Source: Desulfuromonadales bacterium (GTDB lineage: Bacteria; Desulfobacterota; Desulfuromonadia; Desulfuromonadales; SZUA-540). From it: DNA of 64,000 nt. Shown here in pieces: positions 13,541 through 48,984 of this stretch. The stretch lies in contig JAWSUS010000003.1 in the NCBI GenBank assembly GCA_033549025.1, forward strand, positions 137,207-201,206, read 5' to 3'. Position 1 is the stretch's first letter. Each line of letters starts with the position of its first letter. Both the position numbers and the translations under genes were made by a program. The notes below the pieces were generated by a model. That model was not told the DNA's origin and did no database searches. It saw only the letters and a program-made list of their open reading frames with translations.

Positions 13541-13729
13541 TTAAGCCTGCTTTTGCCGCAGAACCGTATTAACCCGTGCGATATCTTTTTTGATTTGAGA
13601 AATACGGGCAGTATTTTCCAGATGCCCGGTATGCATCTGGAATCTCAGGTTAAACAGCTCCTGGCTGAGTTCCTGAGACTGTTTCTTCAAATCATCAACG
13701 CTTTTATCTCTCAACTCATTAGCCTTCAT
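13541..13729 (-). CDS. rpmC: 50S ribosomal protein L29
   Basis: [24 protein letters not shown]; start set to ATG at 13729. Confidence 0.97.
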
Positions 13730-14144
13730 GAGCTTCTTCCTCCCTGATAACAAACTTGGTCTTCATCGGGAGCTTGTGTGCAGCAAGACGAAAAGCTTCG
13801 CGTGCAACATCTTCAGCGACTCCCTGCATTTCATAGAGCACCACTCCGGGCTTTATGACGGCGACCCAGCTGTCCGGGGAGCCTTTCCCCTTACCCATAC
13901 GGGTTTCGGCGGGCTTTCGGGTCAGAGGCTTATGAGGAAAGGCCCTGATCCAGATTTTACCACCGCGCTTGATATAACGCGTCATCGCCCGACGGGCTGC
14001 TTCAATCTGGCGCGAAGAAAGCCATCCGCACTCAATGGCCTGGAGGCCGAAATCACCAAAGTTAAGCTCGGTGCCTCCCTTGGCCGCACCTTTCATGCGA
14101 CCTTTAAATGTCTTTCTATGCTTAACCTTCTTGGGCATTAACAT
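13719..14144 (-). CDS. rplP: 50S ribosomal protein L16
   Basis: [19 protein letters not shown]. Confidence 0.99.
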
Positions 14145-44698: not shown

Positions 44699-45283
44699 AT
44701 GGACACCCTGGATTGCCGCGGCAAAAAATGCCCCCAGCCGGTGATAGAAACGCGCAAGGTTCTGCTGACCAACCCCGCCGCCAGCCAGCGCGTTCTGGTC
44801 AGTGACGAGACGGCCCGTCAAAACGTCAGCCGTCTGGCCGAAAGCCTGGGGCGCTCCGTCATCGCTACCGCGACCGAAGGGGGCTTCGCCCTGGAAATCT
44901 CCGCCGGGGCAACACAGGAAGCGGCCGCCGCCGAACCGGCTGTCCACGGCAAAACCGTGGTCTTCGTCAGCTCGGACAAAATGGGCAGCGGCGACGATGA
45001 ACTCGGGCATATTTTGATGAAAAACTTCATCTTTACCCTGCTCGAGATCAATCCCGTTCCCGATGCCCTCTATTTCGTCAATGCCGGCGTCAAACTGACC
45101 ACAAAGGGTTCGGACGTTCTCGAAGCGCTGGCGCGCCTCGCCGACCAGGGAGCCGATATCGCCTCCTGCGGGCTCTGTCTCGAATTCTTCGACCTGAAAG
45201 AAAGTCTCGCCGTCGGGCGGGCGACCAACATGCTCGACACGGTGGAAACGCTTAGCAAAGCGGGGCGCATCATCCGCCCCTGA
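44699..45283 (+). CDS. yedF: sulfurtransferase-like selenium metabolism protein (SirA/TusA + DsrE domains)
   Basis: LDCRG..CPQPV (TusA motif) fused to MG.GD.ELG.IL...F.N.GV.L...SCG.CL (DsrE-like); ends 22 nt before tRNA-Sec. Confidence 0.85.
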   Translation: MDTLDCRGKKCPQPVIETRKVLLTNPAASQRVLVSDETARQNVSRLAESLGRSVIATATEGGFALEISAGATQEAAAAEPAVHGKTVVFVSSDKMGSGDDELGHILMKNFIFTLLEINPVPDALYFVNAGVKLTTKGSDVLEALARLADQGADIASCGLCLEFFDLKESLAVGRATNMLDTVETLSKAGRIIRP

Positions 45284-45305: not shown

Positions 45306-45401
45306 GGGAGTAGGTAGTAGTCTGGTGACGCTCCCGGTCTTCAAAACCGGTGGGGGGCGTATCCCGTCCCCGGTGGGTTCGATTCCCATCTGCTCCCGCC
45401 A
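45306..45401 (+). tRNA. selC: tRNA-Sec (TCA)
   Basis: 96 nt; 8-bp acceptor stem GGGAGTAG/CTGCTCCC, anticodon arm CCGGT-CTTCAAA-ACCGG, long variable arm, GGTTCGATTCC T-arm, G discriminator + CCA. Confidence 0.96.
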
Positions 45402-45402
45402 A
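45339..45402 (+). repeat. attL core (3' part of tRNA-Sec)
   Basis: CTTCAAAACCGGTGGGGGGCG...CTCCCGCCAA, identical to 48876-48939. Confidence 0.95.
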
Positions 45403-45407
45403 TTAAT

Positions 45408-45450
45408 AAAAACAAGGGGTTACGGTTCTTCCGTAGCCCTTTTGTTTTTT
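45408..45450 (+). terminator. element-derived terminator after the restored tRNA-Sec
   Basis: AAGGGGTTACGG-TTCTT-CCGTAGCCCTTT followed by TGTTTTTT. Confidence 0.7.
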
Positions 45451-45474
45451 AATTTTCGCTAATCTTCTTGCCTT

Positions 45475-45503
45475 TTGTGACAAATTTGTGACAATTGTGA
45501 CAA
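45475..45503 (+). repeat. three tandem TTGTGACAA (putative integrase arm-type sites, left end)
   Basis: Copies at 45475, 45486 and 45495; same motif occurs at the right end. Confidence 0.8.
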
Positions 45504-45538
45504 ATTCAACAACCACCACCAAGGCACGAGGGGAGAAA

Positions 45539-46516
45539 ATGGCGACAATCGTTAAACGCGGGAAAAGCGCCTGGCTTGCTCGGATCAGGAGAAAAGGGTA
45601 CCCACCCCAGACCAAGACCTTTGACAGCAAGGCAGAGGCCGCAGCATGGGCCAGGGGCGTTGAAGCGTCTATGGACCGGGGGCTTTTTGTTGACTACTCG
45701 GAGGCAGAGGGAACAACGCTGGCCGCCGCCCTGGGCCGATACGAAAGGGAAGTTACCAGCAAGAAAAAAGGCAAGGGACAGGAAAAAGACCGCCTGAACG
45801 TGTGGCGGGGGTCTGCTCTAGCCGCCCGCTCTCTGGTCAGCATCAGGAGCGCGGATATTGCAGCATGGCGCGACGGGCGACTTGAGGCGGGGATCTCGCC
45901 GCACACCGTCTGCAACGACCTCTCCCTCCTTTCTCACGTCTACCGGGTAGCGGCCACGGACTGGGGCATTGCGGGCCTGACGAACCCCTGTGAGCACGTG
46001 CGCCGACCAAAGAGGCCGGAGGGAAGAGACAGGAGACTGGAGGCCGGAGAAGAAGAACGGTTACTGGCCGCCCTGCCCGCCTCTGTCGGGGCGGTGGTTC
46101 GGCTGGCGCTGGAAACAGGAGCAAGGCGGGGGGAGATATTGGCGCTGAGGTGGGAAAATATCGACCTGGGGAAAAGAACGGCCCGCCTCCCAGACACAAA
46201 AAACGGGACGGCGCGGGACCTCCCCCTTTCAACCAGGGCTGCGGAGGTGTTGCGGCAGCAACCACGGCGCCTGCATGATTCCAGAGTCTTCCAGATCACG
46301 CCGGCGCACGTGTCAAAAAGCTTCCGGGAGGCGTGCGAGCGGGCAGGGATTGAGGATTTGAGATTTCACGACCTCCGCCATGAGGCCACCAGCCGCCTGT
46401 TTGAAAAGGGGCTGAACCCCATGCAGGTGGCAGCGATCACAGGCCACAAGACCCTGGTGATGCTGCGAAGATACACCCACCTGCGGGCGGAGGATTTGGC
46501 CGCGCTGCTGGGATGA
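45539..46516 (+). CDS. int: tyrosine recombinase/integrase, Rci/HP1-like
   Basis: TGARRGEI (R), TKNG (K), HDLRH (HxxR), GHK...RYTH (H, Y); N-terminal arm-binding domain MATIVKRG..W.ARIRRKG; ATG at 45539 after GGGAG. Confidence 0.95.
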   Translation: MATIVKRGKSAWLARIRRKGYPPQTKTFDSKAEAAAWARGVEASMDRGLFVDYSEAEGTTLAAALGRYEREVTSKKKGKGQEKDRLNVWRGSALAARSLVSIRSADIAAWRDGRLEAGISPHTVCNDLSLLSHVYRVAATDWGIAGLTNPCEHVRRPKRPEGRDRRLEAGEEERLLAALPASVGAVVRLALETGARRGEILALRWENIDLGKRTARLPDTKNGTARDLPLSTRAAEVLRQQPRRLHDSRVFQITPAHVSKSFREACERAGIEDLRFHDLRHEATSRLFEKGLNPMQVAAITGHKTLVMLRRYTHLRAEDLAALLG

Positions 46517-46589
46517 CGGAAAATGGCCTAGAATCGATTTAAAGCGATTGGGTCTAGGGTGGTGGTGGTTGAGTGAATCTTTTTCAATC

Positions 46590-47093
46590 CTAGCCCCCTT
46601 TTTGTTCGTTCTGGGACGTTTTCACAAGGCGGAGGTGACGGCGTTTTTCCGTGGCGCCTTGCTGGAGGGTCCCTTTCCAGCCGATACAGGGGTTGAGGGT
46701 ATAACTCTTGTGGGGTCCGTGCTGCGTCTCTCCCGGGAGGATGACGCCGGCTTCCAGCAGCTTCTTGATGCTGCGGGAGAGATTAGGCTGAGAAAGGTTC
46801 ATTTCCTTAGCTAGCCCGACCTGGTTGACTAAGACCTCGTTCCCATGGCGCAGAGCCTTCAGCAACTTGAAGAAAACCTTGAAGTCAGCACCGGTCAAAC
46901 TGTCACACGTCGATAAATAATCCAGTCCCATCTCTCCGTCTCCCTGCCACAAAATCAACCACTGCTCGTCGGTCTTCGTCTTCTTTTCTACCAGCATCAG
47001 ATTGACCGGGGTAGTGGTTTTTTCCACCACCCCTTTCTCGATGTGGTACGTGGTTTGCTCTAAACTGTGCGCTATCTCTTTGTTTTTACTCAT
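46590..47093 (-). CDS. RepL-like replication/maintenance protein (winged HTH)
   Basis: 167 aa; W...WQ, LTG.DFKVF..LL, N.V.VNQ..LAKEM..SQPNLSRSIKKL.E.G.I, Y.LNP.IGWKG, resembling small-plasmid RepL proteins; GGAGG RBS. Confidence 0.75.
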   Translation of the reverse strand: MSKNKEIAHSLEQTTYHIEKGVVEKTTTPVNLMLVEKKTKTDEQWLILWQGDGEMGLDYLSTCDSLTGADFKVFFKLLKALRHGNEVLVNQVGLAKEMNLSQPNLSRSIKKLLEAGVILPGETQHGPHKSYTLNPCIGWKGTLQQGATEKRRHLRLVKTSQNEQKGG

Positions 47094-47120
47094 GCTTTTA
47101 CCTCCCCACCTCCGTTGAAA

Positions 47121-47179
47121 TGATATGAACTATATCACCTGTGATATGGGTTATATCATCCGTGATATACCAAAGTCAA
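47121..47179 (-). promoter_or_regulatory. repL promoter overlapped by palindromic boxes with a 21-bp period
   Basis: Minus strand TTGACT-N18-TATAAC (47179-47150); ATATCA-N4-TGATAT at 47132-47147 and 47153-47168; extra TGATAT at 47121. Confidence 0.7.
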
Positions 47180-47284
47180 GTGTTTTCAACTGTTTGAGTG
47201 CGAAGCACGAGTGTATTAGAATCAAAATCTTTAACCTTTTTTTGTTTCTTTTTTTACGCACTACTTTACTCAACAATCATTTCT

Positions 47285-47491
47285 CTATTCTTCTATCACC
47301 CTTCGAACAATCTTCCTTGCCTGCTTCAATGCACTCTCCCTAACGAATACTGACGGCTCCCTGTCTTCCAGCCGCGCGGCCTGTTCTATCTCATCCCATT
47401 GACCCTGAGTGAACGCCACGCTCTTAACTACCCTGAAAGCATCTTCCTTGCGCGGTCTGCCTGGAATTCCTTTCCTATTGCCCATTTTCAA
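47285..47491 (-). CDS. small ribbon-helix-helix-like DNA-binding protein
   Basis: GRPRK, beta-strand KSVAFT, then two helices (QWDEIEQAA, PSVFVRESALKQA); start overlaps the upstream stop (ATGA). Confidence 0.65.
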   Translation of the reverse strand: MKMGNRKGIPGRPRKEDAFRVVKSVAFTQGQWDEIEQAARLEDREPSVFVRESALKQARKIVRRVIEE

Positions 47492-47973
47492 CCCCTCCCA
47501 AACATGTTCTTAGCACTGCCTACCAGACCTCCGGCCCTGCGGGTTTTTTCTTCCTTGACGTAGTTTTCAACCAGGTCCAAAGAGTCCTTCAGAGCCTTGG
47601 TCCTAGGGAAGGCCAGGCGGAACGCCTTCACCGCCTCGTCAACGGCTTCCTTGTTGGTGTTTTTTTCCTCCCGCATGGCGTCGGCAATAGATTTGATCTG
47701 GCTCTGTGTGTGGGCGTTGATCTTGTCTATCAGCTTTGCCATCTCCGTTATTACCCTGGTTCTCTCGGCGGTTGCCTGCTCTCTCGCCGCTTCCATAGTC
47801 TCAGCCAGCTTGATATCAATCCTCGCTATCAGCCTTTCTTCAAGCGCCGTCGCCTCGGACTCAGCGGAGATAAGCGCCCGCGCCGCCTCTGTCGGCGTGC
47901 AGCCCCTTTCCTCCGCCAGCTTCATCAAAAATCGAAACTCCCCTTCCCCCATCCTGATGTTGATCTGTTTCAT
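47488..47973 (-). CDS. RHH-like N-terminus fused to a long coiled coil
   Basis: MKQINIRM...FL..LAEERGCT.TEAARALI, then about 120 helical Ala/Glu/Lys-rich residues; AGGAGGTG RBS. Confidence 0.7.
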   Translation of the reverse strand: MKQINIRMGEGEFRFLMKLAEERGCTPTEAARALISAESEATALEERLIARIDIKLAETMEAAREQATAERTRVITEMAKLIDKINAHTQSQIKSIADAMREEKNTNKEAVDEAVKAFRLAFPRTKALKDSLDLVENYVKEEKTRRAGGLVGSAKNMFGRG

Positions 47974-48238
47974 TTTTTCACCTCCTTTTTGATATTATCA
48001 TAATATCGAAATTGCCCCGAAAGGTAAAGGCAATTTTCATATTATCGTATTATGAAAAGGATTTCCGATGGCGTCAGACAAATGGCTGACAGTGATATCA
48101 GAACAGGCGTGGTTGGTTGATATCGCGGGCACACGCCGCAAAATGGGCGCTGTCGCCGTTATTGCAAGGGCTGGTGATATCGCTCCCGATATCGCGTGCA
48201 CACAGCATAGATGTTGGGCTGGCGGCCCGCTGGCGACA

Positions 48239-48272
48239 GCACACCCTACCACCAAGGGTGAGTAGGGTGTGC
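48239..48272 (+). other. long hairpin, candidate oriT/nick site
   Basis: GCACACCCTAC-CACC-AAG-GGTG-A-GTAGGGTGTGC. The hairpin is certain; the function is inferred. Confidence 0.45.
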
Positions 48273-48711
48273 AAGCTAACCACATGTCGCCTTTCTGGGC
48301 CAACGTGCTTCTGTCTGGGCTTTTTCTCCCGGCGCGTGGCGGCGGGCGGTGTGTTCATGATCGGGCAATAGGAAAGGAAAATTTGTCGTTTCTCTGCGCC
48401 CCGTGCGCCGGGTCCGGGTTCCGCCTTGCCCCACTATCCCCTTGAGGGATAGCGGGCCTCTCGGCGCTCGCCCTCGCTCGCCCTCCCCCGGAACTCCCCT
48501 TGCTGCCTGACTGGTGTTTTTAGACCTTGGTAGGGAAGGCTGGCCTAGCTGAAAGGTCCCTGCCAGAGAACGGCCAGCAGAGAATAATCACTGATCCCTT
48601 CCCCACGCCTTTAAGCCTTTGACCTGACGAAGCGACGGCGAAGTCACCTCCGCGCCTCGTGGGTCAGAATGCGCCTCGCGACTGTCCGCCCGCGAGTTGA
48701 CACGGAAGGGA

Positions 48712-48802
48712 TGTGACAATTTGTGACAAGGGAATTTTTGTTCTTTGTGGGCTGGTGTCACGGGATGGTTAAATCTGATGATTTGTGACAAATTTGTGAC
48801 AA
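48712..48802 (+). repeat. four (T)TGTGACAA in two pairs (putative arm-type sites, right end)
   Basis: Copies at 48712, 48721, 48783 and 48794, in the same orientation as the left-end copies. Confidence 0.8.
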
Positions 48803-48875
48803 TTCTTTTCAAAAAGCCAAAAAATAACGCTCGTAAGTTCCTGTTTTTACTGTATTTTTATTGGCTAAAAACGGA

Positions 48876-48939
48876 CTTCAAAACCGGTGGGGGGCGTATC
48901 CCGTCCCCGGTGGGTTCGATTCCCATCTGCTCCCGCCAA
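48876..48939 (+). repeat. attR core (duplicated 3' part of tRNA-Sec)
   Basis: 64-bp identity with 45339-45402; lacks the 5' part of the tRNA. Confidence 0.95.
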
Positions 48940-48945
48940 ACAGAG

Positions 48946-48984
48946 AAAGAGGGCTGTACCCCAACGGGTGCAGCCCTCTTTTTT
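48946..48984 (+). terminator. original selC terminator, probably bidirectional
   Basis: AAAGAGGGCTGTACCC-CAAC-GGGTGCAGCCCTCTTT-TTT immediately after attR. Confidence 0.85.

Follow-up and report, generated by a model that had tools for sequence, protein, structure and literature searches.

A cargo-free 3.5-kb element in tRNA-Sec that probably hitches on a MOBF relaxase island in Desulfuromonadales

Introduction

How might an integrated element of four genes move between cells when it encodes neither a relaxase nor a mating apparatus? The question is raised by a 3.5-kb unit in the tRNA-Sec gene (selC) of a Desulfuromonadales bacterium, within a stretch of 64,000 nucleotides of contig JAWSUS010000003.1 (assembly GCA_033549025.1) that we call the window and whose numbering is used throughout. 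A sequence-only reading of the window had described the unit as a complete minimal replicon of no named family, with a tyrosine integrase, a RepL-like protein and two ribbon–helix–helix (RHH)-like proteins, that would need a conjugative or phage helper to move. By comparing it with related genomes, plasmids and phages, we arrive, with a probability of roughly 80%, at a cargo-free, relaxase-less integrative mobilizable element (IME) of the class termed iOriT, which would depend for its movement on a MOBF relaxase island that is a hitcher too.

Structure and conservation of the element

The unit is delimited by an exact 64-bp repeat of the 3' part of tRNA-Sec, with a spacing of 3,537 bp between the two copies, and has a G+C content of 54% compared to 58% in its source genome (G000; Table 1). 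An integrase gene (int) on the plus strand faces three genes on the minus strand, which are followed by roughly 0.9 kb without a credible gene; beyond these four, the only open reading frames (ORFs) of at least 100 amino acids (aa) are three antisense overlaps of the same genes. The integrase has a complete catalytic set (R196, K221, H277, R280, H303 and Y312) and is 56% identical to the integrase of an island at tRNA-Leu of the same genome and 49% identical to Pseudomonas phage integrases. Arm-type repeats stand at both ends, accounting for 6 of the 11 exact copies of TTGTGACAA in the 3.39-Mb genome. The repeat and the unit with their coordinates, the four intact genes and the arm repeats, as given by the sequence-only reading, are confirmed. 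Directly upstream of tRNA-Sec lies a gene with a TusA domain (YedF-like, 44699–45283), conserved throughout the order.

Table 1. Features of the element and its integration site, in window positions.
Feature	Position	Strand	Remark
tRNA-Sec (selC), intact, integration target	45306..45401	+	ARAGORN; Rfam RF01852, 77.3 bits
attL core, 64-bp direct repeat	45339..45402	+	exact match to 48876-48939
Three arm-type repeats TTGTGACAA, putative integrase arm sites	45474..45507	+	
Tyrosine integrase, 325 aa from ATG	45539..46516	+	PF00589, E 5e-29
73-bp gap between convergent int and repL	46517..46589	.	variable cargo at this position in related islands (G011 island, metagenome contig L052)
RepL-like winged-helix protein, 167 aa	46590..47093	-	
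Candidate repL promoter, then two short inverted repeats	47131..47179	-	-35 TTGACT 47179-47174; repeats 47153-47169 and 47131-47147
Candidate replication origin, a conserved A-rich block preceding the repL promoter	47179..47255	-	
RHH-like protein, 66 aa from ATG 47485 (68 aa from TTG 47491), NikA/MobC/TacA-like	47285..47485	-	ORF 47285-47491; weak Pfam hits
17-bp inverted site, copy 1	47467..47483	-	copy 2 at 48363-48379
RHH and coiled-coil protein, 161 aa, in TrwA position, candidate relaxosome accessory factor	47488..47973	-	
AT-rich inverted repeat with candidate promoters of the 161/66-aa operon	47987..48058	-	
GATATC palindromes (four) on the 5' side of nic, putative binding sites of RHH proteins	48094..48193	.	
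Probable MOBF-type oriT core with a short inverted repeat, the predicted nic (48270/48271) and a conserved ATGT box	48239..48295	+	nic by analogy with F
Predicted leading region, hairpins with putative priming role	48271..48875	+	hairpins 48420-48475 and 48590-48720
Arm-type repeats, attR side	48711..48804	+	
attR core	48876..48939	+	then original tRNA terminator hairpin 48946-48981

Among 41 genomes searched, the full element is found at the same site in G000 and its congener G002. The congener G001, whose flanking genes are closer to those of G000 (synonymous divergence, dS, of 0.21–0.27, compared to 0.40–0.60 for G002), has a precisely empty site with the attL core present once; in a further congener, G003 (78% complete), no island follows the tRNA. 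Between G000 and G002 the ratio of nonsynonymous to synonymous divergence (dN/dS) is 0.068 for int, 0.043 for repL, 0.28 for the 66-aa gene and 0.36 for the 161-aa gene, so that int and repL are under strong purifying selection. Length and gene set are constant in both genomes and a metagenome unitig (3,533–3,546 bp). A third allele, a 3,533-bp unitig in run X1, has a diverged block of equal length in place of 46703–47191, which spans the putative repL operator and the N-terminal 130 codons; a protein (P0002) whose identity to the 167-aa protein is confined to the last 37 residues fits the same kind of exchange. The four sequencing runs considered consist of contigs, in which circles would not show, and runs with small shares were left out of the evidence; depth in run X5 is 42 over the element and 36–43 on its flanks, which is no measure of copy number. 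Intact ORFs, purifying selection, the gene set shared with G002 and the empty site in G001 all bear out the earlier view of a complete element.

A probable origin of transfer resembling that of a relaxase island

The non-coding tract, previously perceived as structured, does fold better than shuffles over 48060–48500 (DNA z of −3.1 and −2.8). Two ideas about its content were discarded: as to a structured RNA gene, Rfam finds tRNA-Sec plus weak sub-threshold matches at the downstream terminator only, and as to hidden genes, eight alternative ORFs have no consistent coding signal and the six of them that were scanned match no family. A 72-aa ORF overlying the repL promoter has a dN/dS of 0.10, based on 10 changes only.

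The most likely identity of the tract is an origin of transfer (oriT) of MOBF type. Ten of 12 bases 5' of the predicted nick site (nic) match the F nic site TGCGTGGGGTGT^G, which places nic after 48270; the cut site of F TraI is given as TTTGCGTGGGGTGT^GGT (PMC2504302), and MOBF relaxases are described as binding an inverted repeat 5' of nic. An alignment of MOBF loci has a short inverted repeat, an invariant G-TG-GT--GGTGTG core and, in most rows, an ATGT box downstream. Positions 48239–48273 are identical between G000 and G002 (35/35) and 48083–48282 nearly so (197/200), whereas dS in int and repL reaches 0.43–0.48. Against 72,556 plasmids, the tract gave no meaningful match.

Within G000, the best match of the 61-nt oriT core lies at C3:11053–11090, with 82% identity over 39 nt (E 0.003); 293 bp downstream of it begins an operon in which an RHH gene is followed by genes for a TrwB-type coupling protein and TrwC. 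The motif of this locus, GGTGAGTCGGGTGTGTA, sits about 290–320 bp upstream of the RHH gene on the opposite strand, and in the element GGTGAGTAGGGTGTGCA precedes the 161-aa gene by 284 bp with identical strand geometry; the two are the best 17-mer matches in the genome (17/17 and 15/17), where 13 sites reach 14. A weak DNA match led to the second island, at tRNA-Leu(CAA), which contains this locus and which we call the helper. In G000 it is split between C44:4153–6968 (L016) and C3:1–15033 (L048), parts that we join on the basis of synteny. The copy in G002 (L017) encodes an integrase 55% identical to that of the element, restriction-modification cargo, DotA/TraY, a TrwC/MobF relaxase, a TrwB-type coupling protein and an RHH protein. 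Hidden Markov models applied to the G002 copies, which are 85–86% identical, identify the coupling protein (PF10412, 3e-70) and TrwC (PF08751, 6e-81); in G000, the TrwC domain lies at C3:7364–8155. TrwC is found in both carriers of the element, G000 and G002, and not in G001 and G003, which have empty sites. The earlier statement that there is no relaxase therefore holds for the element, where neither a relaxase or mating-pair gene (Pfam and PHROGs with the four proteins plus another six short ORFs, NCBIfam with just the four proteins) nor a relaxase fragment was found, and misses the matching relaxase that the genome encodes at tRNA-Leu.

The cargo of the helper differs between strains, with a BglII-like nuclease and an MT-A70 methylase in G000 and a cytosine methylase and a nuclease-like gene in G002. 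DotA/TraY is linked to the IncI/Dot-Icm type of channel, and such a channel is indicated here by the DotA/TraY of the G002 helper (TIGR04346, 1e-108) together with a weak TraX-like match (E 0.005). This DotA/TraY may replace the exclusion target of the helper's own conjugative helper, as SGI1 does with TraG. On C44, a second, solitary tyrosine integrase (420 aa, L016:2255–3517) lies upstream of tRNA-Leu. A further island in G002 (L018, C1:880000–893000) has a 39%-identical integrase and an OLD-family ATPase and UvrD helicase pair, which we take to be Gabija-like; a similar arm sequence follows tRNA-Arg(CCG) in G000 (L020, C23:47553–47668), without the integrase of L018.

Occurrence of the motif at TrwC loci

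We built a motif pattern from G000, G002 and a more distant genome, G011, and scanned it in 401 genomes of the class. The 7 exact hits comprise the 5 source sequences, one site in G275 upstream of an RHH–coupling protein–TrwC operon and one in G204; among the 13 hits with one mismatch, that in G285 again lies upstream of such an operon and the other 12 resemble chance. TrwC scores above cut-off in 37 of the 401 genomes, and of 20 further TrwC loci that were fetched, 5 have a related 12-mer. It stands in the expected geometry in G277, in one G282 locus and in G034, whose relaxase is 50% identical; in G094 the geometry agrees at a distance of 4.3 kb, and in G131 the 12-mer is on the other strand. 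All 5 elements examined that have a relaxase with 50% or more identity to that of the helper (G000, G002, G275, G285 and G034) thus have the motif in position, and the last three are independent of pattern construction. The MOBF modules of G275 (L049:10549–17003) and G285 (L050:10098–16451) have a replication-like helix-turn-helix gene divergent from oriT; the G275 relaxase matches that of the helper over 771 residues in an ORF of only 646 aa and appears interrupted.

Candidate accessory factors and their repeats

Relaxosome factors are typically N-terminal RHH proteins that bind 5' of nic, as described in PMC8136818. Both small proteins of the element are RHH-like, as had been proposed: a profile of four helper RHH proteins, one of which is a Pfam RHH_1 member, scores 19.4 bits with the 161-aa and 10.3 bits with the 66-aa protein, values reached by none of 1000 shuffles, which is a lead of moderate strength given the small profile. 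The 66-aa protein further reaches 0.94 in the Atlas to NikA-like clusters and 2e-5 in BLASTP to a helper RHH protein. The 161-aa protein is modelled as helical (predicted template modelling score 0.37); it had no relative outside its own cluster among 369 candidates, and its Atlas hits stay at or below 0.90.

The repeats between RHH gene and nic differ from island to island: GATATC in both copies of the element, GCTGCC in the G000 helper, TGCACA in the G002 helper, GCCAGC in G011 and GTAAAC in G275. Between the G000 and G002 helpers, the relaxases are 85% and the RHH proteins 53% identical, with a dS of 1.47 for the RHH gene versus 0.40–0.59 for four other genes; the RHH gene and the repeat type are exchanged, and relaxase and nic core retained (L048:10405–11090 and L017:16089–16803). 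This forms a Gram-negative parallel to the oriT/SmpO specificity switching of pWBG749 plasmids, in which carrying the cognate smpO is reported to have allowed mobilization by a non-cognate helper (PMC8136818). By analogy, the element would bring its own RHH adaptor.

A 12-nt core of the 17-bp inverted site occurs twice in the genome, both times in the element, and twice, again inverted, in the G011 island. The opposite-strand pair flanks the oriT module in both RepL islands (L026:13881 and 15235 in G011) and is absent from the helpers; the sites could serve priming, RepL or recombination.

The RepL-like protein and related islands

Pfam recognizes a winged helix in the 167-aa protein, whose relatives number 561 in the full search. 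Of the 34 relatives scanned (33 top matches and P0002), at least 10 pass the Pfam RepL cut-off, a lower bound as the best five families per protein were considered. By tblastn, 211 plasmid records match; most of the 40 listed are 1.4–5.5 kb long, and in these the matched gene is annotated as RepL or is the sole annotated gene. Several plasmid relatives are named 'replication/maintenance protein RepL' by NCBI, and a profile of the relatives matches three plasmid Rep proteins at E values of 1e-51 to 1e-56. The predicted model is a confident winged helix (predicted local distance difference test score 89.6), and the pair N134-P135 appears equivalent to the Asn-Pro pair conserved in RepL proteins. 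Upstream, the two inverted repeats that follow the -35 hexamer are likely an autoregulatory operator, and the same arrangement precedes rep in G011 and in three free plasmids; 47150–47284 is identical to G002 at 130/135 positions, and the A-rich block is 85% identical over 79 nt to the G011 island. The RepL-like nature of the protein, proposed from the sequence alone, is therefore borne out; the label 'replicon' requires more caution.

Several results weigh against replication. The protein itself scores 16.2 bits with the RepL family (PF05732), under the cut-off of 20.3; no four-iteron array was seen; and in the island ROD21, deletion of the RepL-annotated SEN1990 is reported to have left copy number and excised form unchanged (PMC10655114). 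We nonetheless lean slightly towards a RepL-like protein that gives the excised or incoming circle transient replication.

A comparable frame occurs in G011, a genome of another family, where an 8.3-kb island at tRNA-Leu(TAA) has a 42–44%-identical integrase facing a 37%-identical RepL; the oriT motif, the two inverted sites and the conserved block upstream of repL recur there as well. Its cargo between int and repL comprises a TIR-domain gene and DUF4019, and G011 has no TrwC and, in the tract, no intact RHH gene; a short frame with QINIR, which resembles the N terminus of the 161-aa protein, may be what is left of one (L026:14000–14100). Beside nic, the G011 island has a 12-nt stretch identical to part of one repL operator repeat (L026:14610–14625 and 13715–13730), which hints at RepL binding at oriT; the identity is absent in the studied element, though GATAT occurs in both places. 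Metagenome contig L052 shares the int/repL frame with a different cargo and ends before the motif position. By comparison with these loci, the studied element appears as the cargo-free form of int and RepL islands.

The family is rare in what was searched, by scans that were insensitive or sampled: the RepL profile found 3/401 class genomes and 1/401 phylum genomes (G000 itself, the samples overlapping), a narrower RepL pattern scan of genome contigs found one locus with neither integrase nor tRNA (L027), and scans of metagenome and viral contigs with the pattern found one locus (L052) and none, respectively.

Discussion

We propose that the integrase recombines the att cores, both of which are seen in the sequence, as is a precisely empty allele in G001, and would thereby release a 3.5-kb circle or insert it into tRNA-Sec. 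The 161-aa and perhaps the 66-aa RHH protein would bind the repeats that the element itself carries next to nic. The tRNA-Leu island would supply a TrwC-family relaxase to nick after 48270, as the motif match and its geometry suggest, and a TrwB-family coupling protein to deliver the strand to a mating channel provided by a visiting conjugative element, probably of the IncI/Dot-Icm type. RepL would probably let the excised or incoming circle replicate transiently.

Some observations speak against this proposal. Evidence for excision, nicking and transfer is at the level of sequence, and the cores of element and helper differ at 2/17 positions. A VirB4-type ATPase was found in 0/5 genomes with PF03135 and PF19044 (G000, G001, G002, G003 and G011), models that are not specific to IcmB/TraU, for which none was run, and PF12846 gave nothing above cut-off in 3/3 genomes; transfer would thus not occur with resident genes alone, and both islands would wait for an incoming conjugative element. 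With one mismatch allowed, the motif pattern gave 20 hits versus 10 for a reversed control, so that single loose hits mean little; one of the 7 exact hits (G204) lies in no recognisable element, 15 of the 20 further TrwC loci, several of them cut by contig ends, have no similar motif, and G011 carries the motif yet no TrwC. Finally, dS of the element (0.43–0.48) falls within that of the hosts (0.40–0.60), values with which vertical descent and loss in G001 would be compatible and from which the last transfer cannot be dated.

The rivals differ in what they make of the same genes. The RepL-like protein of an otherwise identical iOriT may be only an autoregulated DNA-binding regulator or excision factor, a serious possibility that falls a little short of an even chance. 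The dispensable RepL-annotated gene of ROD21 is a precedent, a Foldseek search of the PDB with the model yields winged-helix regulators only, none with E < 0.001, the upstream block has no similarity to the origins of three RepL plasmids and lacks an iteron array, and the element has no recognised gene for a recombination directionality factor (RDF, excisionase), so that another gene may fill that role. This is countered by the small plasmids whose RepL or sole annotated gene matches, by the relatives above the RepL cut-off, by the low dN/dS of repL and by the Asn-Pro pair, which SEN1990 is described as lacking (PMC10655114), the equivalence of positions being presumed; moreover, operator and DNA-binding half are exchanged together in the third allele, as expected of a replicon specificity module. 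Within the iOriT reading, a hybrid family of RepL-replicating elements with their own RHH adaptor and binding repeats is a tentative and on balance doubtful proposal.

That the unit is an immobile remnant of a larger MOBF island that lost its relaxase and coupling protein seems improbable. The likeness of its integrase to that of the helper and the shared RHH–oriT geometry make descent from a relaxase-bearing island plausible, and its dS resembles that of the host; yet its length and gene set are constant, int and repL are strongly constrained, no relaxase fragment is left and the closer relative has a precisely empty site. Origin by reduction would be compatible with an iOriT, and the comparisons do not favour inactivity. 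Even less probable, and hardly to be expected, is a minimalist satellite packaged by a helper phage, to which small size, tRNA site and the relation to Pseudomonas phage integrases might point. Phage satellites such as PICI, PICMI and P4-like elements have AlpA and primase or packaging-interference genes as hallmarks; here, Pfam and PHROGs gave no match to AlpA, primase, terminase or capsid beyond weak ones (E ≥ 0.009) of the 161-aa coiled coil, the RepL-like protein has no match in 50,697 phage records or viral contigs, and the conserved tract is accounted for as oriT. The absence of phage and viral relatives of RepL and the oriT match to a co-resident relaxase island indicate a conjugative helper route, so that of the two routes first envisaged the phage one is set aside and the need for a helper stands.

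We thus return to the iOriT as the preferred reading, and with it the claim that no named family applies lacks support as worded, as the element falls under the definition of an iOriT or relaxase-less mobilizable genomic island (MGI): it is att-delimited and integrated, has a recombinase and carries an oriT similar to that of a relaxase-encoding element. It has no relaxase of its own, as an iMOB (IME with relaxase) would. Actinomycete integrative and conjugative elements combine int and rep with an FtsK-type Tra, and the element has no ORF for an FtsK/SpoIIIE translocase.

The lifestyle is already known. The class is defined in a preprint (Ares-Arroyo et al., bioRxiv 10.64898/2026.01.13.699239) that reports 1,750 such oriTs in six clinical species, and the term is also used in PMC11389934. 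Like the islands described there, the element is att-delimited, with a tyrosine integrase and an oriT and without relaxase or mating genes. According to the same preprint, a third of oriT-only hitchers need two helpers, and 205 iOriTs carry the oriT of a relaxase-only island and hence depend on two, as we infer for this element. The surveyed integrative elements exceed 4 kb, bar one 2-kb exception, compared to 3.5 kb here, and only 12 IMEs (0.5%) have fewer than five genes, compared to four and no cargo here; no discussion of a rep gene or an own RHH factor for iOriTs was found there ('ribbon' has 0 occurrences in the main text).

A review (PMC5704250) covers IMEs that carry rep genes as well as islands that have no relaxase but encode an accessory factor. 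As described there, MGIVflInd1 and MGIVchHai6/MGIVmi1 likewise combine an integrase with an oriT mimic, and the MGIVchHai6 type encodes its own relaxosome factor, MobI, that recruits the relaxase of the helper; the MGIVflInd1 family measures 18–33 kb, and these MGIs work with MOBH systems, possess an RDF and react to activators of the helper. Unlike them, the element has a MOBF-type oriT, a non-conjugative helper and no recognised RDF. In the pWBG749 family, too, RHH factor and sites vary and the relaxase is conserved, and an own RHH factor opens access to a non-cognate relaxase (PMC8136818). That family consists of plasmids with other relaxase systems; here, the element is integrated and its nic is of TrwC type. 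The plasmid pCERC7, with NikA and oriT, is reportedly another parallel.

Among replication modules, pSN2 (RepL) and pHW126/pIGMS31 also have a winged-helix Rep of about 18 kDa without classical rolling-circle motifs (PMC5703833; bioRxiv 10.1101/2022.12.05.519187), and two short inverted repeats precede rep here as described for repM of pIGMS31. These are free plasmids, and pIGMS31, compared by its description only, has a conserved region and four iterons, an array that was not found here. SGI1 is a mobilizable island with transient replication from its own rep, and is 42 kb long with an RepA_C-type initiator (PMC7433901); ROD21/EARL islands are mobilizable with a RepL-annotated gene, as here, and unlike here have their own MobQ relaxase (PMC10655114). 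Our literature search, which left most subscription journals uncovered, found no element with int, RepL and oriT, nor such islands in this group; nor did it yield a description of the combination of 3.5 kb, four genes, a RepL module, own RHH factors and an oriT of the MOBF type used by a relaxase-only helper.

To judge by its genes, the element looks immobile; the present comparison gives it a proposed mechanism and a named helper. Its host belongs to a bacterial class that the six species of the iOriT survey do not represent, and for which a candidate family of MOBF oriTs is now at hand. It also offers a natural test of how a hitcher escapes the specificity of its helper, as the RHH protein and repeats of the helper changed between two strains, in both of which the hitcher has the same repeat type and an RHH protein of its own. 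If the hybrid family proved real, any member of a MOBF relaxase clade would be usable despite an accessory-factor switch like that between the G000 and G002 helpers. The element would then rank with the smallest IMEs that have a tyrosine integrase, as a third-tier parasite that measures about 3.5 kb and whose cargo slot is empty. If RepL works, int, att, rep and oriT within 3.5 kb would make a ready integrative vector backbone for these anaerobes.

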